A DNA stretch of 62,145 nt from Thermoanaerobaculia bacterium (GTDB taxonomy: Bacteria > Acidobacteriota > Thermoanaerobaculia > UBA5066 > Gp7-AA6). Positions within the stretch are counted from its first letter, which is position 1. Each line of letters begins with the position of its first letter. The DNA is taken from positions 1-62,145 of the forward strand of contig DATBBK010000063.1 of NCBI GenBank assembly GCA_036271035.1, given 5' to 3'. The notes below the pieces were generated by a model, which was not told where the DNA came from, did not search any database, and worked only from the letters and a program-made list of their open reading frames with translations. A program made the translations under genes and the position numbers. Positions 9,464 through 51,271 of the stretch are shown here, piece after piece.

Positions 9464-10785
9464 GCGACGCGACCGCGGTCGTCGGCGCCGGACTCTCCGG
9501 CCTGACCGCCGCCCGCGCGCTCGCGCGCGCCGGGCGCCCCGTCGTCGTCTTCGAGGAGTCGGGCCGCCCCGGCGGCGCGGTCCGTTCGGAGGCGCGAGGC
9601 GGATTCCTGATCGAGCTCGGTCCGAACACGGTGCGGCCCACGCCGGAGCTGTGGCGCCTCGTCGAGGAGCTCGGCCTCGCGCGCCAGGCGCTCTTCGCGC
9701 CCGCGAGCCTGCCGCGCTACGTCGAGCTCGGCGGACGCCTGCACGCGCTGCCCGCGTCGCCGCCCGCGTTCGTCGCGTCCCGGCTGCTCTCGGTGGCGGG
9801 GAAGCTGCGGCTCTTGTCCGAGCCGCTCCGGCCGCGCCGCCGTGCCAATGCCGAGGAGAGCGTCCACGCGTTCGCCGCGCGCCGCCTCGGCGCCCAGGTC
9901 GCCGACCGGATGATCGAGCCGTTCGTGGGCGGCGTCTACGCGGGCTCGGCCGACGCGCTCGAGGTCTCGGCGGCGTTCCCGTCGCTCGCCCGCTGGGAGC
10001 GCGAGCGCGGGAGCATTCTTCGGGGCGCCCTCGCCGACCGCCGGCGCCGGCCCGCCGGGCCGCGTCCGCCGCGGGGCCTGCTGTCATTCCGCGAGGGGCT
10101 CGAGGCGCTCCCCCGCGCGCTCGCCACGGAGCTGGGCGACTCGCTCCGGCTGAACGCGGCGATCCGCGGGCTTAAGCCGTCGAAGGACGGCTGGACGCTC
10201 GAGACCTCCGACGGCGCCGTCGACGCCGCGCGCGTCGTCCTCGCGGTCCCGGCGTGGCGAGCGGCGGAGCTCGTCGCCGGATTCGCGCCGGAGGCCGCGG
10301 CGGCGCTCGGAGCCATCCCGCACCCCCCGCTCGCCGTCCTGCACCTCGCGTACGCCGCGGCGTCGCTTCCCCGCCCGCTCCACGGCTTCGGCCACCTCGT
10401 CGTGCCGGATCCGGCGCGCCGCATCCTCGGCGCGGTCTGGAGCTCGAGCCTGTTCACCGGCCGCGCCCCGGACGGGCAGGTCCTGCTGACGGTGTTCGCC
10501 GGCGGCACCCGCGACCCGGACGCAGCCGGGCTCTCCGACTCGGAGCTGGCCGGCATGGCGGCGCGCGATCTCGCCGGCGCCGGAGTGGCCTCGGGCGCGC
10601 CGACGGTGGTGGCGATCACGCGCTGGAGACGGGCGATTCCGCAGTACACCTTCGGCCACGGCGAGCGGATCCGGGTGCTGGAGCACGCCGAGGCGAGATG
10701 GCCGGGGCTGCGGTTCGCGGGGAATTACAGAGGCGGCGTTTCCGTCGGCGACGTGGTGAAGTCGGGGATGGAGGCGGGATCGTAG
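9460..10785 (+). CDS. hemY: protoporphyrinogen/coproporphyrinogen oxidase (HemY-type, FAD)
   Basis: GTG 9460 overlaps the hemH stop (GTGA). FAD fold VVGAGLSGLTAARAL...FEESGRPGG, and C-terminal ...GNYRGGVSVGDVV. Confidence 0.9.
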   Translation: MSDATAVVGAGLSGLTAARALARAGRPVVVFEESGRPGGAVRSEARGGFLIELGPNTVRPTPELWRLVEELGLARQALFAPASLPRYVELGGRLHALPASPPAFVASRLLSVAGKLRLLSEPLRPRRRANAEESVHAFAARRLGAQVADRMIEPFVGGVYAGSADALEVSAAFPSLARWERERGSILRGALADRRRRPAGPRPPRGLLSFREGLEALPRALATELGDSLRLNAAIRGLKPSKDGWTLETSDGAVDAARVVLAVPAWRAAELVAGFAPEAAAALGAIPHPPLAVLHLAYAAASLPRPLHGFGHLVVPDPARRILGAVWSSSLFTGRAPDGQVLLTVFAGGTRDPDAAGLSDSELAGMAARDLAGAGVASGAPTVVAITRWRRAIPQYTFGHGERIRVLEHAEARWPGLRFAGNYRGGVSVGDVVKSGMEAGS

Positions 10786-10821
10786 AGGCGAAACGCCCGC
10801 GGCCGGCAGTGCGACGGGAGT

Positions 10822-11004
10822 AGGAGGACCGGCCCGCGAGTCCCGCGGCGAGAAAGTCGCTTATGGAACGCGGCACTCCGCAAGTCGGGCCTGCGCGCTT
10901 CGATGGTGTCAGCCCTCAATTTTTCGGAGCTCAGAACGAGTTGAGCTCTATCGCGTTCGCGTCGTCGCTCCGAAAAACAAAGGACTGACCCCGAGCACGG
11001 CATC
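10822..11004. repeat. conserved ~184-nt structured intergenic element, copy 1 (candidate ncRNA or non-autonomous element)
   Basis: Colinear block-wise match to 44574-44757 in the same orientation. The two copies share helices with compensatory differences. No conserved reading frame. Confidence 0.8.
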
Positions 11005-11032
11005 TGGTCAACCCGGGCGCGGCATCCGGCGA

Positions 11033-11608
11033 TCAATGGTCGTGCTGTTCGTGCCCGCCATGGTTGTCTGGCTTCTCGTCTTCGTGACCGTGCTCCTCTT
11101 TTTCGCTTCCCGCCGCGAGGGCCTTCTCCTCGTCCTTGGACAGCTCCGGCAGGTGGCGGAGGAACGTGACCATCCGCCAGATCTGCTCCTCCTTGTGCGT
11201 CGGCCCGAAGGCCGGCATCCCCGTCATGCGGATCCCGTTCGAGACGATCCAGAAGAGCTCTCCGTCCGAGCGCGCCTGGACCTTCGCCAGCGTCAGATCG
11301 GGCGCGGGCGGGTTGAGGCCCTCGCCGATCTCCGACGGATCGACGCCCGGCGCGCCGTGGCACGTCACGCACATCTCGCGGTACGCCCCGAGCGCGCGCG
11401 AGAGCGTCTCGGGCGACCCGGCGACCGGATTCTTCTGGTTCGAGGCGCGCTTAGCGACCGAGCGATTGAGCGCGAACGGAGCGAGCGCCTTCTCCAGCGC
11501 GCTCGGCGGCTTCGACGCCGCGAAGTCGAACACCCCGCTGACGACCACGACCCCCCCGAGGATGAGCAGCAGGACCAGAGTGGTGATCATGCCCGCGAGA
11601 AATCGCAT
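11033..11608 (-). CDS. membrane-anchored c-type cytochrome with His-rich C-terminal tail
   Basis: Heme motif CVTCHGAPG with a distal Met region (IRMTGMPAF). N-terminal TM helix. Strong SD GGAGGTG ahead of ATG 11606-11608. C-terminus EEHGHEDEKPDNHGGHEQHDH. Confidence 0.85.
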   Translation of the reverse strand: MRFLAGMITTLVLLLILGGVVVVSGVFDFAASKPPSALEKALAPFALNRSVAKRASNQKNPVAGSPETLSRALGAYREMCVTCHGAPGVDPSEIGEGLNPPAPDLTLAKVQARSDGELFWIVSNGIRMTGMPAFGPTHKEEQIWRMVTFLRHLPELSKDEEKALAAGSEKEEHGHEDEKPDNHGGHEQHDH

Positions 11609-15009: not shown

Positions 15010-17124
15010 TCACGGGATCCCCGCCGGCTCGACCTCCACGCGCGCGTCGTTGAAGCAGGCGCCGCCGCCGAGGTCCGTGAGCGTGTCGGGCGCGAGCGCG
15101 TTGGCGGTCGTGCCGCTGTCCGTGTTGTGGCTCCAGATCCCCTTGGGCATGAACGCGACGCCGGGCCGCAGGTCGGGGTCGATTCGCGCCCGGCAGCGAA
15201 CCGAACCGAGGTCGTTGAAGACGCGGACCCGCATGCCGTCGCCGATCCCGCGCGCGGCGGCGTCGTCCGGGTGGAGCGAGAGCGGAACCGGCGCGGAATG
15301 GAGCTCGCCCAGCGTGGAGCTGATCGTCCGGTCGGTGCCCGGCGAGATGAGCGCGAGCGGATGGCGGGCGTCGCCGCCGCCGGGATCCGGCGCGTAGTGG
15401 TAGAGCCCGCCGGGGCACTCGCGATCGAGCTCCTCGGGGACGAGGTCCACGCGGCGGTCCGGCGTGTTCGGGAACGCGTCGACGAACTGGACCGGGGTCG
15501 CGCCCTCCAGCGGGAAGGCGGCGCCGCGGGCGGCGATCTCCCGCCGCAGCTCTCCGGCGCGCGCGCTCGTCGCGAGGATCGCGTCCGCGATCTCCTCCGC
15601 CGTCTCCGGCTCGCCGGAACGGGCGACGCCGGTGCGGCGGCAGAGCTCGCCGAACACGTCGTGGTTCGCGCGAGCCTCCCCCGCGGGGCGCGCCGCCGGC
15701 GGCGCCAGCTGGAGGACGAGCGCGCCGTAGCCGCGCGACATCTCCGTCCTCTCGAGGAAGGTCGCGGCCGGCAGCACGACGTCGGCGTAGCGCGCCGTGT
15801 CGGTCATGATCGGGTCGAAGACGACCGTGAAGAGGTCCTCGCGCCGCAGCCCGCGCTCGACGAGGTCCTGGTTCGGCAGCGTCATGACCGGATTGCAGTT
15901 GTAGACGAAGAGCAGATCGACGTTGCCGGCACTTTGCGTCGCGCCCGCAGCCGTTTCCGCCGCGTCCGCGGCGCGTCCATTTTGCGCGGCGTTTGCGCCG
16001 CGACCCCGCTTCACGAGCGCGTCGCCGACGCGGTTCATGTTGATCTCGCGGGTGGCCGGCGCCGCCTCGCCCACCGCGGCCATTCCGTCGAGCTCGCGCC
16101 AGGCCGGCGAGTTGCTGTTGGTGTAGCCGCCGCCGCGCACGCCGAACTTGCCGGCGACGGCGGGCAGCGCCAGGATCGCCGCAGTCGCGGAGCCGCCGTT
16201 GCGGTTGCGCTCCTGGCCCCAGCCGCAGCGGATCGCCGCGGGAGAGGCATCGGCGTACATGCGCGCGAACGTCTCCAGCTCCGCCGCCTCGACGCCCGCC
16301 TCCGCGGCCGCCCGCTCGATCGTCCAGGGCGCCGCGCGTCGCTCGAGCTCATCCGCGCCGCGCGCGTGCGCCGCGAGGAACGCCCGGTCCGCGCGGCCGT
16401 TGGCGAAGAGCCAGCGGATGACGCCGAGCGCGACGGGCAGGTCGGCGCCCGGACGGACCGGCAGATGCAGATCGGCGCGCGCCGCGAGCCGGGTTCGCCG
16501 CGGGTCGATCACGACGAGGCGGGCGCCGCGCTTCTGCGCCTGCTGGACGTAGGGAACGAGGTGGATGCTCGACACCGAGGGATTGACGCCCCAGAGGACG
16601 ATCAGGTTGGCGTGGACGTAGTCCTGCGGCGCGACGCCGGTCATCTTCCCGTAGAGGCCGGACGCCGCGCGCGCCGTCGGAGCCGCGCACACCGTTCGCG
16701 CGAGACGCGAGGCGCCGAGGCGATAGAAGAGGCGCGCGTCGGTTGTGTCCTGCGAGACGTAGCCGTTCGACCCGCCGTACGAGACCGGCAGGATCGCCTC
16801 GCCGCCGGAGCGCGCGCGCGTCTCGAGCAGCCGCGCGGCGACCAGGCCGAGCGCCTCGTCCCACGTCGCGTCGCGGAAGCGCCCCTCACCCTTCGCGCCG
16901 GTGCGGATCCCCGGCCTCAGGAGGCGCGCCGGACCGTACATGTGCTCGGGGAGCCGCCGGACCTTCGCGCAGATGTAGCCGTCCGTGATCGGGTTGACGC
17001 GGGATCCGCCGACCTCGATGACGCGCCCCTCCTGGACGGTCACGTCGAGGCTGCACGCGTCCGGACAGTCGAGCGGGCAGGCGCTCGCGACGTGACGCGG
17101 CTCCGAGGCGGGTGGGCCGCTCAT
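15010..17124 (-). CDS. molybdopterin-dependent oxidoreductase (MopB superfamily, N-terminal 4Fe-4S)
   Basis: Start MSGPPASEPRHVASACPLDCPDACSL (Cys cluster). Molybdopterin and dinucleotide-binding domains. ATG 17122-17124 overlaps the stop of the upstream M1 peptidase gene (ATGA). Confidence 0.85.
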   Translation of the reverse strand: MSGPPASEPRHVASACPLDCPDACSLDVTVQEGRVIEVGGSRVNPITDGYICAKVRRLPEHMYGPARLLRPGIRTGAKGEGRFRDATWDEALGLVAARLLETRARSGGEAILPVSYGGSNGYVSQDTTDARLFYRLGASRLARTVCAAPTARAASGLYGKMTGVAPQDYVHANLIVLWGVNPSVSSIHLVPYVQQAQKRGARLVVIDPRRTRLAARADLHLPVRPGADLPVALGVIRWLFANGRADRAFLAAHARGADELERRAAPWTIERAAAEAGVEAAELETFARMYADASPAAIRCGWGQERNRNGGSATAAILALPAVAGKFGVRGGGYTNSNSPAWRELDGMAAVGEAAPATREINMNRVGDALVKRGRGANAAQNGRAADAAETAAGATQSAGNVDLLFVYNCNPVMTLPNQDLVERGLRREDLFTVVFDPIMTDTARYADVVLPAATFLERTEMSRGYGALVLQLAPPAARPAGEARANHDVFGELCRRTGVARSGEPETAEEIADAILATSARAGELRREIAARGAAFPLEGATPVQFVDAFPNTPDRRVDLVPEELDRECPGGLYHYAPDPGGGDARHPLALISPGTDRTISSTLGELHSAPVPLSLHPDDAAARGIGDGMRVRVFNDLGSVRCRARIDPDLRPGVAFMPKGIWSHNTDSGTTANALAPDTLTDLGGGACFNDARVEVEPAGIP

Positions 17125-18923
17125 CCGGGCCGACCGACGATGCGGTCCATCGTGTCCACCGCAATGGGATGGTATCCCGGCCGCGCGCGCGCATAGATGG
17201 CGCGGGCTCGCGCGTGGCCCTCCGGCGTCTTCACGAGCTCCTCGTAGAGCGGCTTGATGTACTTGCGCCGGCCGATCGACACCAGGAACTCCTCGAGCCG
17301 GCCGTTCGCCGGGGCGTAGCCCGAGCGGAGCGACATGAGGAGCCACTGGAAGGCGACCTCGTTGTTGCGCGACTCCGTGAGCCCGAGCGCGCGGTCGAGC
17401 TCGGCCATCCGCGCGGCCGGCAGCGGGCTCGGCAACCGGCGCAGGAACTGGATCCGCTGCTGCGTGCTCCAGCCCGCGAACGGAAGCGCGTCGGACGCCA
17501 CGCGCCCGCCGGTCCATTCCTCCGCCACGCGCGCGACGGCGTCGAGGGCGGCGGATACCGGTTGCGGCGCCTCCGCCGGAAGGGCCGGCGCCTCGATCCA
17601 CGCCTCGAGCGGAACGGCCTTCGCCCGGCCCGCGTCGGTCGCGAACAGATTCGCGCGCAGATCGTCGAGGAAGTCCTCCGTGAGGATGCTGCGGAACGCG
17701 AACCGGTCGAAGTAGCCGCGCAGATATGCGTCGAACCGCTCGCGGCCGAATAGCTCCTCGAGCGAGCGCAGGAAGAGAGAGCCCTTCTCGTACGGCAGCC
17801 GCGTGGCGCCGTCGTCCGGGTCGCGCCCGGTGAGGTCGATGTGAAGGATCTCGTCGCGGTCCTCGAGACGCTCGAGCTCGTCCTCGAGGTCCTGACGGCC
17901 GAGGACCGCCTCCATCGTCGCGGCGTCGCGGCCGTAGACCTCCTCGACGAGCCGCCGCTCGAGATAAGTCGTGAAGCCCTCGTTCAGCCAGAAGTCGCGC
18001 CATGTCGCGTTCGTGACCAGGTTCCCGGACCATGAGTGCGCGAGCTCGTGCGCGATGAGCGACACGAGGCTCTTGTCGCCGGCGAGGACCGTCGGCGTGG
18101 CGAAGGTCAGCCGCGGGTTCTCCATCCCGCCGAACGGGAAGCTCGGCGGCAGCACGAGGATGTCGTAGCGCTCCCAGCGGTACGGCCCGTAGAGCCGCTC
18201 CGCCGCCTCCATCATCTTCTCCGTGTCCTCGAACTCGCGGGCGGCGGCGCCGACGACGGAGGGCTCCGCGTAGACGCCGGTGCGCCGGCTCATCGGCGCG
18301 AACCCGATGTCGCCCGCCGCGATCGCGAGCAGATACGCGGGGATGGGCTGCGGCATCGTGAAGCGATACTCGCCGCCGCGGCGTCCCTCGGGATTGCCGC
18401 CGGCGCTCATGACCGCGGCGAGCTCGGGCGGCGTGCGCACGCGCGCCTCATAGGTCAGGCGGACCTGCGGTGTGTCCTGGATCGGGATCCAGCTGCGCGC
18501 GTGAATGGCCTGCGACTGGGAGAAGAGGAACGGATGGCGGCGGCCCGCCGTCTGCGCCGGCTCGAGCCACTGGAGCCCGGACGCGGTCGGCCGCGTCGCG
18601 TAGGTGATCCGGACGCGGTCGTCGCCCGGCCGCAGGGCGACCGTCAGGGGCGCGCCGAGGATGGCGTCGGCGTCGCCGAGCTCGAAGGCCGCGTCGCTCC
18701 AGCCGCCTCCGCCGGACGAGGACTCCGCGCGCGTGACGTCGAGGCCGCGCGTGTCGAGCCTCAGCGAGCGGGCGTTCGGGCTCGGATCGACGCGCGCGAG
18801 CGCGAGCTCGGCGGTGCCGCGGAGGATGCGTCTGTCGAAGAGGACATCGAGATCCAGCGCCGCGTGAGAGACGCGGACCTCACCGGGGTTCGCGTAGGAG
18901 TGCACGTCGCGGATCGGCCGCAT
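17121..18923 (-). CDS. M1 family zinc aminopeptidase (leukotriene A4 hydrolase-like)
   Basis: Contains GGMENP, HELAHSWSGN and an NEGFTTY...E zinc site. 600 aa. Confidence 0.92.
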   Translation of the reverse strand: MRPIRDVHSYANPGEVRVSHAALDLDVLFDRRILRGTAELALARVDPSPNARSLRLDTRGLDVTRAESSSGGGGWSDAAFELGDADAILGAPLTVALRPGDDRVRITYATRPTASGLQWLEPAQTAGRRHPFLFSQSQAIHARSWIPIQDTPQVRLTYEARVRTPPELAAVMSAGGNPEGRRGGEYRFTMPQPIPAYLLAIAAGDIGFAPMSRRTGVYAEPSVVGAAAREFEDTEKMMEAAERLYGPYRWERYDILVLPPSFPFGGMENPRLTFATPTVLAGDKSLVSLIAHELAHSWSGNLVTNATWRDFWLNEGFTTYLERRLVEEVYGRDAATMEAVLGRQDLEDELERLEDRDEILHIDLTGRDPDDGATRLPYEKGSLFLRSLEELFGRERFDAYLRGYFDRFAFRSILTEDFLDDLRANLFATDAGRAKAVPLEAWIEAPALPAEAPQPVSAALDAVARVAEEWTGGRVASDALPFAGWSTQQRIQFLRRLPSPLPAARMAELDRALGLTESRNNEVAFQWLLMSLRSGYAPANGRLEEFLVSIGRRKYIKPLYEELVKTPEGHARARAIYARARPGYHPIAVDTMDRIVGRPG

Positions 18924-19043
18924 GGCGCGAGGAGATTAGCACCGGCCGCGCTCGAGGCGGCCATCGGAGGCGGGAACGCCGGAGGCGAATCCGGATCCGT
19001 CGAGAGGCGCGGGCCGAATGCCTCGATTTCGGTGTCGAAACGC

Positions 19044-19072
19044 AAAAAAAATGGGCGCGCCGAAGCGCGCCC
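19044..19072 (-). terminator. Rho-independent terminator of the small secreted-protein gene
   Basis: On the minus strand: GGGCGCGC-TTCG-GCGCGCCC followed by a run of 8 T, about 27 nt after the stop. Confidence 0.8.
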
Positions 19073-19098
19073 GAAAGGGATACGCGAGGTTCGACGTC

Positions 19099-19323
19099 TT
19101 ACTTGCCGGGCGTCGGCTTGGGCGCCGGCGCCGTCTGCGTGGTCGACTTGTGCGACTTGCTGGTGTGGTGATGCTTCTTCGCCTTCGGCGTGGTCGAGGC
19201 CGCGGCGCCCGACGACGTCGCCGTCGACGGAGCCATGGTCGGCTTCGGCGCGGGCGCGGAGGTCTGCGCCGCCACCACCACCGGCAGACCGAACGCGAGC
19301 GCGAGACTGACGAGCTTCTTCAT
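19099..19323 (-). CDS. small secreted low-complexity protein (Pro/Thr/Ala/Lys-rich with a KKHHHTSKSHKS patch)
   Basis: MKKLVSLALAFGLPVVVAAQ signal peptide, SD GGGGAG, its own canonical terminator. 74 aa. Confidence 0.7.
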   Translation of the reverse strand: MKKLVSLALAFGLPVVVAAQTSAPAPKPTMAPSTATSSGAAASTTPKAKKHHHTSKSHKSTTQTAPAPKPTPGK

Positions 19324-19486
19324 TTCCGTTACTCCCCTTTTCGCGATGCCCTTTGCATCGTGAGTTCCAGGGTCAACGTACGCTCGCCCCCATGAACCGA
19401 ACATGAACGGTAGTCACGAAAGGCGCCGATGGCGCGCGCGGCTAGAATTCCCTGATCCGCTTCGGCAAGACCGACGAGGAGGCACC

Positions 19487-21658
19487 ATGAGCCGAGGATC
19501 CATTCACGCGTCGCTCGCAGCCGCGGGACTGCTGGTCGGCATCGCCGCCGGCGCGCTCGGCGTTCCCCAGGCGTCGCCGTCCGCCCCCCCGGCGTCCGAC
19601 AAGCGACCCGTGACCGACACGTACCACGGCGTCGCGGTGCGCGACGACTACCGTTGGCTCGAGGACCCGTCGGAGCCCGAGGTCAGGGCGTGGAGCGACG
19701 CCCAGAACGCGTACGCGAGGGGGATCCTGGACCGCCTCCCTTCCGTCACGGCCCTGCGCGCCCGCCTGAAGGCGATCGCGAGCACGCCGTCGCCTTCCTG
19801 GTCCGCGCTCGTGCGGCGCGGCGACGGGTGGTTCGCCCTGAAGAGCGAGCCGCCGAAGCAGCAGCCGTTCATCGTGCGGGTGTCCGTCGCGGCGGATCCC
19901 GCCTCCGAGCGGATCGTCGTCGACCCGAACGCGCTCGACCCGACCGGCGGGACGGAGATCGACTGGTTCATCCCCTCCGTCGACGGACGCCTCGTCGCCG
20001 TCTCACTCTCGAAGGGCGGCAGCGAGGCGGGCGACGTGCACGTGTTCGACGCCCAGACCGGCCGCCCGCTCGCCGACGTCATCCCGCGAGTCAACGGCGG
20101 CACGGCGGGCGGCGGCCTCGCGTGGAATGACGACGGCAGCGGATTCGTCTACACGCGCTATCCGCGCGGGCACGAGCGGAGCGGACAGGACGTCGACTTC
20201 TACCAGCAGGTCTTCATGCACCGCCTCGGCACGCCGACGGAGTCCGACTCGTACGAGACCGGCAAGGATTTCCCGCGCATCGCCGAGACGACGCTGCATC
20301 AGTCCGACGACGGGCGGTACGTGCTTGCGACCGTGAAGAACGGCGACGGCGGCGAGGCATCGCAGTACCTCCGCGCGCCGGATGGCGCGTGGTCCCGAAT
20401 CTCGGCCGACGAGGACCGCGCCATCACCGGTCGCTTTGCGCCCGACGGCTCGCTCGAGCTGATCTCGCGCAAGGACGCGCCGCGCGGCCGGATCCTGCGG
20501 CTGGCGCCCGGCTCGAGCGACCTCTCCCGCGCTTCGGTCCTCGTCGAGCAGGGCCCGGACTCGATCGACGACTTCTGCCCGACCGCCGGAACGCTCTACG
20601 TCGCCTACATCGTCGGTGGGCCGTCGCGCGTCCGCGTCTTCTCCGCGGACGGCGCGCCGAGGGGCGAGGTGCCGCTTCTCCCCGACTCGTCGGTCTCGGA
20701 GATCGTGTGGGCCGGCGGCGACGAGATCCTCTTCGACAACCAGAGCTACACCGAGCCGCCCTCCTGGTACCGGACGGGTCCGGCCGGCCGCCCCGTGCGC
20801 ACCGGCCTGCGGCAGACCGCGGCCGCCGACTTCTCCGACGTCGAGGTCAGCCGCGAGATGGCCGCCTCGAAGGACGGCACGAAGGTTCCCGTGGACGTGC
20901 TCCGGCGCAAGGGCGCGCCCCGCGACGGCAACAACCCGACGGTCCTCTACGGATACGGCGGCTACAGCATCAGCCAGCGTCCCAGCTACAACGCGCTTCG
21001 GAAGGCGTGGCTCGAGCAGGGCGGCATCTACGCGTTCGCCGGAATCCGCGGCGGCGCCGAGTACGGCGACGACTGGCACCAGGCCGGGAAGCTGCTGCGG
21101 AAGCAGAACGTGTTCGACGACTTCGCCGCGGCCGCCCGGCAGCTGATCGCCTCGAAGTGGACGCGCCCCGCGCGGCTCGCGATCGAGGGCTGGTCGAACG
21201 GAGGGCTCCTCGTCGGCGCGTCCTTCACGCAGCACCCGGAGCTGTTCGGAGCGGTCATCTCCCACGTCGGCATCTACGACATGCTGCGCTGGGAGCGCTC
21301 GTCGAACGGCGCGTTCAACGTCACCGAGTTCGGCAGCGTGGAGGATCCGGCGCAGTTCCGCTACCTGTATGCGTACTCGCCGTACCATCACGTCGCCGAC
21401 GGCGCGGCGTACCCGCCGATCCTCTTCCTCACGGGCGCGAACGACCCACGCGTGGATCCCATGCACTCGCGCAAGATGGCGGCGCGCCTGCAAGCGGCGA
21501 CGAACGGCAAGACGCCGGTCCTGCTGCGGACGAGCGCCAGCTCCGGCCATGGCTTCGGCAGCTCGCTCGACGAGAAGATCGGCGAGACGCTGGACGTCGA
21601 CGCGTTCCTGCTCGACCGGCTGGGGGTGACCTACAAGCCCGTGAACGTGAAGCCGTGA
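19487..21658 (+). CDS. prolyl oligopeptidase family serine peptidase (S9A)
   Basis: ATG 19487 preceded by GAGGAGG. Signal peptide and beta-propeller followed by an alpha/beta hydrolase domain with EGWSNGGLL (GxSxGG) and a C-terminal His. Confidence 0.9.
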   Translation: MSRGSIHASLAAAGLLVGIAAGALGVPQASPSAPPASDKRPVTDTYHGVAVRDDYRWLEDPSEPEVRAWSDAQNAYARGILDRLPSVTALRARLKAIASTPSPSWSALVRRGDGWFALKSEPPKQQPFIVRVSVAADPASERIVVDPNALDPTGGTEIDWFIPSVDGRLVAVSLSKGGSEAGDVHVFDAQTGRPLADVIPRVNGGTAGGGLAWNDDGSGFVYTRYPRGHERSGQDVDFYQQVFMHRLGTPTESDSYETGKDFPRIAETTLHQSDDGRYVLATVKNGDGGEASQYLRAPDGAWSRISADEDRAITGRFAPDGSLELISRKDAPRGRILRLAPGSSDLSRASVLVEQGPDSIDDFCPTAGTLYVAYIVGGPSRVRVFSADGAPRGEVPLLPDSSVSEIVWAGGDEILFDNQSYTEPPSWYRTGPAGRPVRTGLRQTAAADFSDVEVSREMAASKDGTKVPVDVLRRKGAPRDGNNPTVLYGYGGYSISQRPSYNALRKAWLEQGGIYAFAGIRGGAEYGDDWHQAGKLLRKQNVFDDFAAAARQLIASKWTRPARLAIEGWSNGGLLVGASFTQHPELFGAVISHVGIYDMLRWERSSNGAFNVTEFGSVEDPAQFRYLYAYSPYHHVADGAAYPPILFLTGANDPRVDPMHSRKMAARLQAATNGKTPVLLRTSASSGHGFGSSLDEKIGETLDVDAFLLDRLGVTYKPVNVKP

Positions 21659-21661
21659 GCG

Positions 21662-21690
21662 GTCGATATATTAGCCAACGCTAATACGTC
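21662..21690 (+). repeat. AT-rich hairpin/palindrome, copy A (GTCGATATATTAGC-CAAC-GCTAATACGTC)
   Basis: 7-bp arms TATTAGC/GCTAATA with a 4-nt spacer. Flanks conserved with the copies at 38555 and 39922. Confidence 0.75.
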
Positions 21691-25171: not shown

Positions 25172-25246
25172 TGGCGGCCCCAACGGGAATCGAACCCGTG
25201 CCGCGGCCTTGAAAGAGCCGTGTCCTAACCTCTAGACGATGGGGCC
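25172..25246 (-). tRNA. tRNA-Glu (anticodon UUC), CCA encoded
   Basis: GGCCCCATCGTCTAGAGGTTAGGACACGGCTCTTTCAAGGCCGCGGCACGGGTTCGATTCCCGTTGGGGCCGCCA folds as a cloverleaf. Anticodon stem CGGCT/GGCCG, loop CTTTCAA. Confidence 0.93.
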
Positions 25247-38554: not shown

Positions 38555-38584
38555 GTCGATATATTAGCGTTTGCTAATACATCG
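38555..38584 (+). repeat. AT-rich hairpin/palindrome, copy B (GTCGATATATTAGC-GTTT-GCTAATACATCG)
   Basis: Same arms and flanks as copy A. Lies 11-40 nt beyond the ATP-grasp stop codon. Confidence 0.75.
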
Positions 38585-39921: not shown

Positions 39922-39948
39922 GACGTATTAGCCTCAGCTAATGGATCG
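39922..39948 (-). repeat. AT-rich hairpin/palindrome, copy C (inverted: CGATCCATTAGC-TGAG-GCTAATACGTC on the minus strand)
   Basis: The reverse complement matches copies A and B, including the GCTAATACGTCC flank. Lies in the divergent region between the ATP-grasp gene and the 38-aa ORF. Confidence 0.75.
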
Positions 39949-43247: not shown

Positions 43248-44543
43248 ATGGCCATCCATCGTCGCGCCCTCCTCTCGGGTCTGGCCTCGGGCGTCGGCCT
43301 GTTCGCGTGGCGCGGCGACTCCCTCGCGCGCATCGTCTCGGCCGGCCGTTCCGCGGGCGCGGCGCCGCCGCAGACGCTCGCGACCGAGGAGGCCTACTGG
43401 GGCGAGATCGCGCGGGCGTTCGACGTCGACCGCACTTGCATCAACCTCAACAACGGCGGCTGCAGTCCCGCTCCCTCATCCGTCATGGACGTGCTCATCC
43501 GCGACGTGCGCTTCTCGAACGAGATCCCGGTCCACAACATGTGGACCGTCCTCGAGCCCCGGATCGAGAGCTGCCGCCGCGACCTCGCGGCCGAGTTCGG
43601 CTGTGATCCCGAGGAGATGGCCATCACGCGCAACGCGTCCGAGTCGCTCGAGACGCTGATCCAGGGGATCGACCTCCAGAAGGGCGACGAGGTCGTCGTC
43701 ACGACCCAGAACTATCCGCGCATGCTCACGACGTGGGACCAGCGCGCGCGGCGCGACGGCATCGTCGTCAAGCGCATCACGTTCCCGGTGCCGCCCGTCT
43801 CGCAGGCGGACCTCGTGGAGCGGTACCGCGCCGCGATCACGCCTCGCACCCGGGTCCTCGAGGTCACGCACATCACGAACCTCACGGGGCAGATCTTCCC
43901 GATCCGCGACATCGTGAAGATGGCGCGGGAGCGCGGGATCGAGGTCTTCGTCGACGGCGCGCACGCGTTCGCGCACTTTCCATTCAAGCGCGACGAGCTC
44001 GACTGCGACTACTACGGGACGAGCCTGCACAAGTGGCTGTACGCCCCGATCGGAACGGGCTTCCTGTACGTGCGCAAGTCGAAGCAGAAGAAGATGTGGC
44101 CGCTCATGGCCGCTCCGCCGGAGATGGACGAGAACGTGCGCAAGTACGAGGAGATCGGCACGCACCCTGCGGCGAACCACAACGCGATCGCGATGGCGAT
44201 GGTGTTCCACCGGACGATCGGATCCGACCGGAAGGCGGCGCGCCTCCGCTTTCTGCGCGACCGCTGGGCGAAGCGGCTCTCCGCGGCGAGCTCGCGCGTG
44301 AAGGTGCTCACGCCGTTGAACGACACCGACTCCTGCGGCATCGGCTTCGCGCACTTCGAGGGTCTCGACACGAAGAAGCTCCAGGCGCACCTCTGGGACA
44401 AGCACCGGATCATGACGACGCCCATAGATCACCCCGAGTTCAATGGGCTGCGAATCACGCCGAACGTGTACACGATGCCCGGCGAGGTGGATCAGTTCTG
44501 CGACCGGATGGAGAACATTCTGAAGGACGGCCTTCCCGCGTGA
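43248..44543 (+). CDS. class V aminotransferase-fold PLP enzyme with a twin-arginine signal peptide
   Basis: AAGGAGG SD. MAIHRRALLSGLASGVGLFAWRG (Tat-like). PLP-lysine region GTSLHKWLYAPIG. Confidence 0.85.
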   Translation: MAIHRRALLSGLASGVGLFAWRGDSLARIVSAGRSAGAAPPQTLATEEAYWGEIARAFDVDRTCINLNNGGCSPAPSSVMDVLIRDVRFSNEIPVHNMWTVLEPRIESCRRDLAAEFGCDPEEMAITRNASESLETLIQGIDLQKGDEVVVTTQNYPRMLTTWDQRARRDGIVVKRITFPVPPVSQADLVERYRAAITPRTRVLEVTHITNLTGQIFPIRDIVKMARERGIEVFVDGAHAFAHFPFKRDELDCDYYGTSLHKWLYAPIGTGFLYVRKSKQKKMWPLMAAPPEMDENVRKYEEIGTHPAANHNAIAMAMVFHRTIGSDRKAARLRFLRDRWAKRLSAASSRVKVLTPLNDTDSCGIGFAHFEGLDTKKLQAHLWDKHRIMTTPIDHPEFNGLRITPNVYTMPGEVDQFCDRMENILKDGLPA

Positions 44544-44573
44544 GGTGAGCTGGGTTGGCGAACGGACCGGTCG

Positions 44574-44757
44574 AGGAGGACCGGCCCGCAAGTCCCGCGG
44601 CTACTAAGTCGCTTACAGAAAACACCAGCCGGCAAGTCGGGCCTGCGCGCTTCGATGGGGTCAGGTCTTCGGTTTTCGGAGCTCTTTTCCCGGTGGGGCA
44701 CCACCGATCTCGCGTCGTCGCTCCGAAAACGCTAACACCTGCCCCGGGCACGGCATC
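44574..44757. repeat. conserved ~184-nt structured intergenic element, copy 2
   Basis: See copy 1 (10822-11004). Same orientation. Confidence 0.8.
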
Positions 44758-44764
44758 CGTTGAG

Positions 44765-44789
44765 GGAACCTCCTCCCCCTGCCGGTGTC
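44765..44789 (+). promoter_or_regulatory. ECF-type promoter candidate (GGAAC-N17-GTC)
   Basis: GGAAC at 44765-44769 and GTC at 44787-44789, about 20 nt upstream of the start at 44810 of the first gene in the secreted protein / ECF sigma / anti-sigma operon. Confidence 0.35.
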
Positions 44790-44809
44790 CCAATAGCCGG
44801 AGGGACGTC

Positions 44810-49097: not shown

Positions 49098-51271
49098 AGC
49101 GTCAGGCCGAACGTCTTCGTCAGGAAGACCGCCATCTGTCCGCGCCGCGTCGACTGCGAGGGACAGTACGCGCCGTTGCCGCAGCCCGCGGTGACGTCCT
49201 CGTTCTTCAGAGCCTCGACCCACGGCGCGAACGTATTGGACGCCGGCACGTCCCAGAACTCCCCGCTCGCGGGCGGCGGCGCCCAACCGGCGCCGTGCTC
49301 GGCCTTGAGCAGGAAGACGGCCATCTGCGCGCGCGTCACGGTCGCGTTCGGGCAGAACTTGGAGCCGCCGCAGCCCGCCGTGACCCCCTCGGCGGCGAGC
49401 CGCTCGATCCAGTCGGCCGCAAACGCGGTCGCGGGGACGTCGATGAAGACCTGGCCGGTCGCGGTCGGAGGCACGTACGCGGCGCCGTGTTCGGCGCGGA
49501 GCAGGAAGACCGCCATCTGCGCGCGCGACATCGACGCGTCCGGACAGAACGACGCGCCGCCGCAGCCTGTGGTGATGCCGTTGTGGAGGACGGTCTCGAC
49601 GTAGCGGTAGTCCGCGCGCGACGAGGGCGCGTCGGAGAAGGAGCCGCCGATGTGGATGGGCCACGTCCGCACCGACGTGTCGGAGAGAGTCTCCTGGAAG
49701 AACGCGTCCCAGTGCATTGCCGGCCGGGTCGCGGCCGTCACGACCACGGAGTAGCAGTCGCCGGTCGCGTCGAAGCACGACGCGCGCGCGCCCGCCGCGA
49801 CCGTGCCGTAGTCGGCGGCCGGGTCGCCGATCGCGTACGTCGCCCCCGTAGGGCCCGTGAACGAGGTCGCGGCTCCGGTCATCGCCGCCTCGGTCGCGGC
49901 GGAGTTCGTGTACGACGGCTCGATCGTCGCGACCTCGTTCGTCTCGAGCAGCCCGTTCGGGTGGATGTTCGTCGCCGTCGCGTGGCGGTCCACGCCGAAC
50001 GGCGGCGACGGGCCGAGATCGACCTGAACGACGAGACCGGTGGAGTCCGCGCCGAGCGGGGTGACGTGCAGCTGCGCGGCGACATCGGTGTAGGTCTGTC
50101 CGACCACGAGCGCGGCGTCCGCGAAGCCGGTCGTCGCCGGCGTCATGTCGAGGAGGCAGGAGTCGCACGTGTACGTCGGATAGCCGGGTCCGAGGTGGAC
50201 GAGCGCGCCGCTGATCGGGTTGCCCGACATGCCCGCGTCGAAGCCGAACGGCTGCCGGTACTCGAGCCAGTACGTGAGGCTCTGATCCGGCAGCGGGATC
50301 TGCACCGTGTAGAGGCTCTGGCCCGCCAGCTCGATCGGCGCGATCGTGTAAACGGCCATGCCGGTCACGTGCGTGGCGATCGTCGCGGGAGGCAGGTATC
50401 CGAGCTGGTACTTGAAGTACGCCGGGAAGTGCCGCGCGGCCGAATTGCCCATGATCGAGAAGCGGTCGCCGTACTCCGAGACGGTGCACGTGCCCCCGAG
50501 CACTCCCGAGCCGCACGACAGCGAGCTGGAGTGGCCGACGCCGAAGCAGTGGCCGAGCTCGTGGCCGACGACGAGCACCGAATTGGACTGGTTGATCCAC
50601 GCCGTGGATCCGCCGCCGAGCCCCGACCAGCCGCATGGCAGGTGCGGAAAGAAGTAGACCTGCTTCTCGTATCCGCCGGGGTTGTAGCCCGCGGCCTGAG
50701 CGCGCGCGATCGCCTGATTCATCACCGTGATGTAGTCGCACGTCGCCGGCGTGGCGACGGTCGCCGTCAGCCACGGCGTCACGATCCCCGACACCGTCTG
50801 CGCGCCGTAAGAGGCCTCGGCGTAATAGGCGGAGACGCCCTGCGCGCCGAAGACGACGTTCTGGACCTGCGCCTGCGTGAACGGCTCGGCCGCGGTGTCC
50901 GTGAACTTGATGAGGATCGCGATCACGGACGCGTTCTGGGCGACGACGGACGGCAGCGACGACGGCGCGGCGTCGAGGACCTCGACGCTCTCGACCGCGA
51001 ACGCGCCGCGTGCGGCCGGCGTGCCGTGAACGGCGATCCGAGCGCCCGATTCGAGCGGCGGCGCGCCGGCGGGCAGCTCGAGCACCGTGGCTGCGCCGGG
51101 CTTCTCGACGAGCGTCACGATGCGCGCGGCCGTTCCCGAGTCGAAGTCGTCGGCGGTCAGAATCTGGACGGTTCCCGTTCGCGTCTCGGTCGCCGCCGAG
51201 GCGAGAGCGGAGACGGTCCAGAGGATGGCGAAAGCGGCCGCACGGCGGCCCGGCGCCAGCCTGATGCTCAT
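49085..51271 (-). CDS. secreted metzincin-type zinc metalloprotease (gametolysin/M11-like) with three C-terminal SLH-like repeats
   Basis: Signal peptide. HELGHCFGVGH (HExxHxxGxxH). Three ~60-aa repeats F.D.p....w.e.l...gvTaGCG...fCP...vtRaQMAVFL. Confidence 0.85.
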   Translation of the reverse strand: MSIRLAPGRRAAAFAILWTVSALASAATETRTGTVQILTADDFDSGTAARIVTLVEKPGAATVLELPAGAPPLESGARIAVHGTPAARGAFAVESVEVLDAAPSSLPSVVAQNASVIAILIKFTDTAAEPFTQAQVQNVVFGAQGVSAYYAEASYGAQTVSGIVTPWLTATVATPATCDYITVMNQAIARAQAAGYNPGGYEKQVYFFPHLPCGWSGLGGGSTAWINQSNSVLVVGHELGHCFGVGHSSSLSCGSGVLGGTCTVSEYGDRFSIMGNSAARHFPAYFKYQLGYLPPATIATHVTGMAVYTIAPIELAGQSLYTVQIPLPDQSLTYWLEYRQPFGFDAGMSGNPISGALVHLGPGYPTYTCDSCLLDMTPATTGFADAALVVGQTYTDVAAQLHVTPLGADSTGLVVQVDLGPSPPFGVDRHATATNIHPNGLLETNEVATIEPSYTNSAATEAAMTGAATSFTGPTGATYAIGDPAADYGTVAAGARASCFDATGDCYSVVVTAATRPAMHWDAFFQETLSDTSVRTWPIHIGGSFSDAPSSRADYRYVETVLHNGITTGCGGASFCPDASMSRAQMAVFLLRAEHGAAYVPPTATGQVFIDVPATAFAADWIERLAAEGVTAGCGGSKFCPNATVTRAQMAVFLLKAEHGAGWAPPPASGEFWDVPASNTFAPWVEALKNEDVTAGCGNGAYCPSQSTRRGQMAVFLTKTFGLTLYGP

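Follow-up and report, generated by a model that had tools for sequence, protein, structure and literature searches.

A 62,145-nucleotide stretch of DNA from a Thermoanaerobaculia bacterium (assembly GCA_036271035.1, contig DATBBK010000063.1, positions 1 to 62,145; referred to below as the window) carries two copies of a small, non-coding, interspersed element that belongs to a previously undescribed family from the Thermoanaerobaculia (Acidobacteriota). Thermoanaerobaculia are abundant in soil and almost uncultured, and we know of no repeat families described for them so far. On balance, the family is probably a new non-autonomous interspersed repeat of the known type represented by ERIC, BOX, REPIN, and MITE (miniature inverted-repeat transposable element) sequences. 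It is multi-copy and non-coding, sits in either orientation, clusters and decays, and has no enzyme gene adjacent to it, all of which fits a small non-autonomous repeat. The initial annotation of the window had proposed a structured RNA or a non-autonomous element. Empty sites, occurrence in either orientation, clustering, partial forms, and breaks in assemblies favor the second of these; the first is not proven.

Positions 10780-11050 and 44532-44800 align colinearly on the same strand (MAFFT) with all six conserved blocks present, so the initial annotation had placed both the copies (10822-11004 and 44574-44757) and the blocks correctly. The blocks are near-identical between copies 1 and 2, and the short segments between them are unrelated. 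The window contains exactly two occurrences of each of the 20-mers GGGCCTGCGCGCTTCGATGG and TCGCGTCGTCGCTCCGAAAA (taken from blocks 3 and 5) when up to three mismatches are allowed, against about 0.07 to 0.12 matches expected by chance. The similarity of the two copies is far beyond chance. R1, a covariance model built from 37 aligned family members, scored copy 1 at 197.6 bits (10811-11016) and copy 2 at 202.5 bits (44563-44769) and detected no third copy in the window, where the next best score was 10 bits (E value, 0.9). The G+C content of the window is 71.6%.

The family comprises at least 60 instances, found in soil and rhizosphere metagenome contigs and in three metagenome-assembled genomes (MAGs) of Thermoanaerobaculia. 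The block 3 20-mer matched 52 metagenome loci (L numbers below denote these and the other loci compared), about 43 of which are true members with the whole element and about 9 of which are chance matches to the search pattern. A scan of 185,579 species-representative genomes, made with a pattern that left out the central part of block 3, returned true members only in three MAGs labeled Thermoanaerobaculia or Acidobacteria, one of which has five copies; matches in Solirubrobacterales, Micromonospora, Roseiarcus, and ELA516 were again chance matches to the pattern. R1 recovers all members at 176 to 225 bits, together with further copies and fragments. Homologues of the proteins encoded beside the window copies also carry Thermoanaerobaculia names. 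The comparison with Rfam that the initial annotation had suggested gave no family: the whole window searched against Rfam 15 at gathering scores had no match to either copy, and each copy searched at E values up to 10 returned only a chance match to mir-673 (17.5 bits, compared with a gathering score of 100). Nothing similar was present in PLSDB, INPHARED, or IMG/VR, and in the literature we found nothing on non-coding RNAs of Thermoanaerobaculia and no matching REP (repetitive extragenic palindromic) or MITE family.

Comparison of filled and empty sites indicates that the element has been mobile on an evolutionary time scale. Copy 1 lies in a convergent spacer between the protoporphyrinogen oxidase gene hemY (stop at 10785, + strand) and a c-type cytochrome gene on the opposite strand (stop at 11033, - strand). 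The hem operon (hemE-hemN-hemH-hemY) and the convergent cytochrome c gene are conserved in relatives. L071 and L073, whose hemY is about 64% identical, show these two neighboring genes overlapping by 12 to 29 nucleotides, with no spacer and no element. L071 belongs to MAG XM2_XAASGE4bin.10, which has the element at another locus (L058). Where hemY is 79 to 88% identical (L070, L069, and L034, and P0004's contig by gene coordinates), a spacer of 228 to 273 nucleotides contains the element. The insertion seems to have replaced the original stop codon of the cytochrome c gene and to have given the protein a new C terminus.

Copy 2 lies between the stop codon of a class-V aminotransferase gene (44543, + strand) and the ATG (44810, + strand) of a gene for a DUF7918-type secreted protein. 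The element is absent at this locus from seven contigs with a 131-nucleotide spacer (L076 to L082; aminotransferase 90% identical) and from eight contigs with a 68-nucleotide spacer (L083 to L090; aminotransferase 76% identical), and R1 had no match in 233 kb of relatives of the locus. The part of the spacer adjoining the downstream gene is homologous in all three groups. Insertion therefore took place immediately after the stop codon and brought in the element together with about 25 nucleotides on its left side.

Two observations were made on the sequences beside these insertions. The cytochrome c encoded beside copy 1 (11033-11100, - strand; L070, 7494-7560) has a His/Glu-rich tail, ...EKEEHGHEDEKPDNHGGHEQHDH; the cytochrome c of element-less relatives (L071, 11327-11400) is without that tail, ends in ...REPATSGD, and overlaps hemY. 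The spacer of L076 (7799-7929; also L077 to L082) that is orthologous to 44544-44809 has, where the element would be, another small insert made of two tandem copies of GATCGGTCAGAGGT followed by a GGTGACAGG...CCTGTCACC palindrome; small palindromic DNA thus seems to have landed in the aminotransferase/DUF7918 spacer more than once.

Inserted copies persist, and conservation of their blocks and stem pairing far exceeds that of neutral sites. In a comparison of the window with L070, identity in hemY is 79% for the protein, 78% for the DNA, and 54% at four-fold sites. The element is about 92% identical, its blocks are nearly 100% identical, and its stem is essentially unchanged; the spacer to its left is about 45% identical. 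Copy 1 is similar to its orthologues and distinct from copy 2, which indicates that copies are not homogenized within the genome. Purifying selection of this kind suggests that the element itself may have a function, whether at the RNA level, in single-strand DNA form, or through binding of a protein.

Family members sit about 10 to 100 nucleotides behind stop codons, and their neighbors are unrelated housekeeping genes on either strand. According to crude gene calls made in this analysis, the spacers at the 22 loci with both flanks readable are convergent in about 10 cases, same-direction in about 11 (with the element in either orientation), and divergent in about 0. New copies have been placed, in one orientation or the other, into minimal gaps that begin right after a stop codon. 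The absence of an adjacent transposase, reverse transcriptase, or integrase gene, stated in the initial annotation for the window, was borne out in the neighborhoods inspected; no Y1 transposase was seen in them either, and about 0.74 Mb of retrieved loci contained no gene bracketed by the ends of the element.

Copies also cluster and decay. Three copies lie within 7.6 kb in L007, and a second copy lies nearby in L035, L010, and L014. In L027 a hairpin-less copy stands head to tail with a full copy, and in L068 an inverted half-copy abuts a full one. Some copies are truncated. The hairpin has been lost with at least two different boundaries (L059/L061 compared with L035b), and in L022 and L037 a deletion between internal direct repeats has left 55 nucleotides between convergent genes. 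One site is occupied by different subtypes in L010, L024, and L039. Whole contigs end within 200 nucleotides of the element in 19 of 38 cases, compared with 6.4 expected, which is the signature of a repeat that breaks assemblies.

Several further arrangements were observed at clustered or shared sites. Five lineages (L013, L025, L029, L058, and L068) have rpoD (whose product has the C terminus ...KPFLETIR), the element, and a tRNA-Met-like gene preceded by TTTGTTATATTCAT; at this locus the element blocks are invariant and the loop and flanks change fast. These may be independent insertions at a hot spot. In L068 (700-1100, - strand) a perfect 9+9 palindrome, GCGGCATCC followed by CGGATGCCGC, links the spacer with the inverted half-copy. 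Another repeat, GGGAGAGGGTTGGGGTGAGGGG, which is unrelated to the element, flanks it on its left in L001 (1-50), L043 (5760-5830), L017 (140-200), and L039 (6110-6180). Together with the element it forms mosaic intergenic repeat clusters in several metagenome contigs; it is absent from the window.

The conserved core is about 185 nucleotides long, or about 210 to 240 nucleotides with the end repeats, and in the family alignment conservation runs from about GGAGGAC through CGGCATCCGGT. The unit has two parts, a 5' domain (domain 2) and a 26-bp imperfect palindrome, followed by one to three tandem CGGCATCCGGT repeats with a period of 22 nucleotides. The right limit lies beyond the coordinate given initially, as CGGCATCCGGT occurs at 10998-11008 and again, one 22-nucleotide period on, at 11020-11030. 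The parts of the two copies, in window coordinates, are as follows.

10822-11030: copy 1, whole unit, filling the spacer between hemY and the cytochrome c gene (R1, 197.6 bits; orthologous copies in L070, L034, and L069)
10822-10849: copy 1, block 1, AGGAGGACCGGCCCGCGAGTCCCGCGGC, holding the first CCGC[R]AGTC direct repeat
10845-10861: copy 1, candidate small hairpin GCGGC/GTCGC with a variable loop, followed by AAGTCGCTTA
10880-10912: copy 1, block 3, GCAAGTCGGGCCTGCGCGCTTCGATGGTGTCAG, holding the second CCGC[R]AGTC repeat and showing the highest conservation
10905-10930: copy 1, 5' arm of the long hairpin, partner of 10967-10992
10931-10966: copy 1, apical loop, hypervariable except for TCGCGTCGTC (10957-10966) beside the 3' arm
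10967-10992: copy 1, 3' arm of the long hairpin, with covariation in the family
10993-11030: copy 1, right end, GAGCACGGCATCTGGT and then a second CGGCATCCGGC 22 nucleotides on
44574-44762: copy 2, whole unit (R1, 202.5 bits; empty sites in L076 to L082 and L083 to L090)
44574-44601: copy 2, block 1, from the pairwise and family alignments
44632-44664: copy 2, block 3, from the pairwise alignment and the 20-mer search
44657-44682: copy 2, 5' arm of the long hairpin, with covariation in the family
44683-44719: copy 2, apical loop, with the conserved TCGCGTCGTC at 44710-44719
44720-44745: copy 2, 3' arm of the long hairpin, with covariation in the family
44746-44762: copy 2, right end, GGGCACGGCATCCGTT, with the end motif once

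Domain 2 is about 80 nucleotides long, almost invariant in sequence, and built on the two direct CCGC[R]AGTC repeats. CCCGCxAGTCCCGCG is unchanged in all 37 aligned members, GGAGGAC is retained in about 30 of the 37, and conservation peaks at GCAAGTCGGGCCTGCGCGCTTCGATGG. The center of block 3 is nearly unchanged even in the members from the genome scan, whose search pattern had not used it, and block 3 survives in the doubly deleted remnants L022 and L037. The number of end repeats varies from one to three, with two in copy 1, one in copy 2 and in many other family copies, and three at the 22-nucleotide period in L004, L034, and L070. An ATG-led frame of 27 codons in copy 2 stops after 13 codons in copy 1. 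A coding role was rejected because insertions and deletions break all frames and hairpin-less copies are without the ATG frame of copy 2; the initial view that the element is non-coding therefore extends to the family, in which these changes disrupt every frame.

Covariation is confined to the long hairpin. Its 26 pairs are formed in 94% of alignment cells, 7 of them have changes on both sides, and 52 cells are changed on both sides compared with 16.8 in shuffles; controls in which the partner was slid were less than 50% paired. This stem includes the 10-bp helix that the initial annotation had drawn with a compensatory U-A/G-C extension, which the family alignment confirms (G-C in 24 members and U-A in 10) and lengthens to 26 pairs. 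The broader proposal that the differences between the copies respect one fold holds for this hairpin and fails for a 5-bp helix drawn as CCGCG/CGCGG in copy 1, since the alignment columns involved in the two copies differ (33-37/62-66 and 36-41/68-73) and the change is not compensatory. The copy 1 version of that helix pairs in 59.5% of cells across the family, without covariation, and was rejected. The outer helix GGCCCG/CGGGCC is present in both copies as described and never varies, so its pairing is neither supported nor refuted. The same applies to the rest of domain 2: every helix that can be drawn there is invariant or has one-sided changes only, without covariation. In the candidate hairpin GCGGC/GTCGC the arms are conserved and the loop is variable, with + strand changes from G.U to G-C on one side only and, in the family alignment, no changes on both sides. 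The interior of the palindrome, about 36 nucleotides long, is a loop with CGCGTCGTC conserved beside the 3' arm. The local hairpins that had been drawn within this interior are not a property of the family and were rejected, as the interior folds no better than shuffles (mean z of +0.4 and -0.25). Three other candidate structures were discarded: the helix GCCGUGCUC/AGCGCG, given by RNAalifold on the - strand, in which neighboring positions favor opposite strands and the segment is variable, and which was treated as a bulge or loop; a closing helix ACCGG/CCGGU joining the two ends, which was inconsistent across members; and a hairpin presenting GGAGGA, which was not conserved.

If the family is a non-autonomous repeat, its copying would be carried out by a trans-acting enzyme encoded elsewhere in the genome, and this enzyme would recognize three features: the blocks of invariant sequence, the stem-loop including the motif in its loop, and the end repeats, which resemble iterons. 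A stem-loop with a conserved loop sequence and adjacent direct repeats is a typical substrate of single-strand DNA transposases, HUH enzymes, or site-specific recombinases. Resident copies would be read through from the flanking genes, because most sit 10 to 100 nucleotides behind a stop codon without a separate terminator, and would give a very stable hairpin at the mRNA 3' end. Such a hairpin could benefit the host by protecting the 3' end or by insulating convergent genes, and a benefit at the host level could explain the conservation.

The closest resemblance is to ERIC and BOX. These are intergenic non-coding repeats of 100 to 200 nucleotides with a long imperfect palindrome; they lie in transcribed regions behind genes in either orientation, have size variants produced by internal deletion or insertion, and are conserved in related lineages. 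We know of no transposase of their own for either. The present family shares the imperfect palindrome behind genes, the two orientations, the length variants, and the conservation across lineages, with transcription suggested by the distance from stop codons. It differs in its additional invariant domain of about 80 nucleotides, its tandem 22-nucleotide end repeats, and its large unstructured loop with a motif. The host phylum is also different, and a sequence relationship is implausible given that phylum and the 72% G+C content.

REP sequences are 20 to 40 nucleotides long, with a 5- to 13-bp stem at the base of which a GTAG or CGTC tag is left unpaired (PMC3733652). REP and REPIN sequences are, like the present family, extragenic and palindromic, located in convergent or same-direction spacers, vertically persistent, and found in dimers or mosaic clusters, and they are thought to be mobilized in trans by a single-copy enzyme, RAYT (PMC3733652). 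The present unit of about 185 to 240 nucleotides has a 26-pair stem, and CGTC occurs only within the loop motif CGCGTCGTC; membership in REP/REPIN was rejected on size and on the tag at the foot of the stem. Resemblance to MITEs lies in the small size, the non-coding, multi-copy, and intergenic nature, the presence/absence polymorphism, the long hairpin, and the breaking of assemblies. The differences are that the palindrome is internal, that the 5' domain has no mirror partner, and that no parent insertion sequence is known. The only long inverted repeat of copy 1 is the internal one (10905-10930/10967-10992), and we did not find the simple MITE, bounded by terminal inverted repeats and duplicated target sites, that the initial annotation had named as one outcome that would speak against its proposal.

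A number of results weigh against the non-autonomous repeat interpretation. The left end GGAGGACCGGCCCGC and the right end GCACGGCATCCGGT are not reverse complements, so there are no terminal inverted repeats, and no target-site duplication is readable in the filled and empty pairs, which are 63 to 90% identical in their flanking proteins and too diverged for this purpose. A copy of the end motif to the left of GGAGGAC is weak, exceeding the 95% control in 5 of 35 cases, and was rejected as a direct repeat flanking the unit. None of the loci showed an autonomous partner or a candidate enzyme, and copy number in the three MAGs appears low (one to five with the strict pattern), below that of classical REP and MITE families. 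Loss of the element at the hemY site, instead of gain, is possible; it is less economical because loss would have to restore the overlap of two reading frames. Finally, the blocks are conserved far beyond synonymous sites, which is more than is expected of a selfish relic and fits a functional RNA or protein-binding site equally well.

The last point leads to the possibility that the copies are paralogous genes for a structured non-coding RNA that is made from one strand, acts in trans or binds a protein, and has spread by occasional duplication. We judge this unlikely. The invariant blocks, in an element whose stem covaries, would then be tertiary contacts or protein-binding sites. Conservation well above that of four-fold sites and flanking spacers at the orthologous locus would be expected, as would window paralogues that differ, with copy 1 matching its orthologues and no concerted evolution; the hairpin-less variants resemble the loss of an optional stem. 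Both strands fold better than dinucleotide shuffles, with the - strand modestly more stable (mean z of -3.6, compared with -2.7 for the + strand; more stable in 28 of 37 members), and several one-sided changes preserve G.U pairs. However, the evidence from G.U and C.A pairs is contradictory between strands. Such events are about balanced between strands in the long stem, and domain 2 can be drawn with 98 to 99% pairing on either strand. Choosing a strand by these counts was abandoned, and because the folds are equally good on either strand, the data do not establish an RNA gene with a particular coding strand. Domain 2 is also without the covariation expected of an RNA. The genomic setting is similarly unfavorable: orientation is random with respect to flanking genes, divergent spacers, which would bear promoters, are avoided, and stop codons 10 to 50 nucleotides away on both sides leave no room for a promoter of the element's own. 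Neither of the window copies showed a sigma-70-type promoter or an intrinsic terminator, with the qualification that promoters of this phylum may differ; copy 1 has no terminator-like site, copy 2 has only an internal one at chance level, and terminators are rare across the family. Repeats, moreover, typically break assemblies and leave truncated or inverted partial copies, as this family does, and insertion into a zero-length spacer would require a mobility mechanism in any case. The multi-copy motifs in Rfam, such as those derived from Acidobacteria, are similar in block conservation, a covarying stem, and intergenic location; they differ in that none matches at an E value of 10 in Rfam 15 and in that the orientation of the present family is random relative to its neighbors. 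A riboswitch or other 5' leader was rejected because copies follow stop codons and have unrelated neighbors on either strand.

Somewhat less credible, in our estimate, is a host module acting in cis at gene 3' ends, with no autonomous spread today, that is kept for its benefit to the flanking genes as a bidirectional transcription barrier, as a stabilizer of the mRNA 3' end or RNase III site, or as a place on the DNA where a nucleoid or topology protein binds. The strong bias to gene 3' ends and convergent spacers, the lack of a separate canonical terminator at most loci, and the purifying selection after insertion are consistent with such a module, and the palindrome would work alike on both strands. 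REP/BIME and ERIC elements have been credited with roles of this kind (PMC3733652, a review). However, the stem carries four or five U's in its 5' arm and four or five A's in its 3' arm with no U-tract after it, and an identity as an intrinsic terminator was thus rejected on both strands. Such a module would also leave the invariant domain 2 of about 80 nucleotides and the end repeats unexplained, and relatives manage without the element at the same gene pairs.

We give a low probability to the idea that the family is a mobile structured module in which the loop motif and the invariant domain each have a function of their own, which would make it a new class and not another ERIC-like repeat. 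It might then serve an unlinked HUH, TnpB-like, or recombinase enzyme, either as its scaffold or guide RNA or as a module by which it recognizes single-strand DNA. Another possibility is a self-propagating non-coding RNA that is kept by purifying selection in the host.

Very improbable is a site of recombination or replication, a stem-loop with iterons resembling attP or an origin, that is read by a site-specific recombinase or a HUH Rep-type protein and that derives from an integrative element or rolling-circle replicon as its relic or satellite, since the long stem, the conserved loop CGCGTCGTC, the one to three tandem 22-nucleotide direct repeats alongside, and the weak related motif on the left flank that would suit it are set against the lack of an integrase or Rep gene near any copy in the neighborhoods inspected, the lack of matches in plasmid, phage, and viral collections, the dispersal of copies singly among housekeeping genes, and the many copies with one end repeat only. 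An integron attC array was likewise rejected because the copies, which occur in both orientations, are scattered between housekeeping genes and have no integrase gene in their vicinity.

Other features were observed in the window and in one related contig. An A+T-rich palindrome, TATTAGC-N4-GCTAAT, occurs at 21669-21685, 38562-38578, and 39926-39942, in short spacers by gene ends or starts, and looks like a putative operator of one DNA-binding regulator. Three tandem units at 49121-49584, with a period of 189 to 192 nucleotides and 67 to 78% identity, are probably a repeated protein domain within a gene and not a non-coding array. The sole Rfam match in the window is a tRNA gene at 25175-25246 (- strand; 64.3 bits). 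In L071 (MAG XM2_XAASGE4bin.10), positions 16671-21338, about 5 kb from the hem/cytochrome locus, contain a phage-type integrase gene, small unannotated open reading frames, and a gene for an AAA_25 protein. This region resembles an integrated element and has no connection with the repeat, because R1 has no match there.

The R1 family provides a compact and easily recognized marker that is useful for annotation and for analyzing the fragmentation of MAGs. The element creates spacers between genes that formerly overlapped and alters the C termini of proteins, as in the extended tail of the cytochrome c. Its combination of insertion with conservation far above that of synonymous sites makes it a test case for distinguishing a selfish replicator from a domesticated RNA or DNA module. 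If it is true that the invariant domain binds a specific enzyme, then the family would point to a mobilization system that has not been described.

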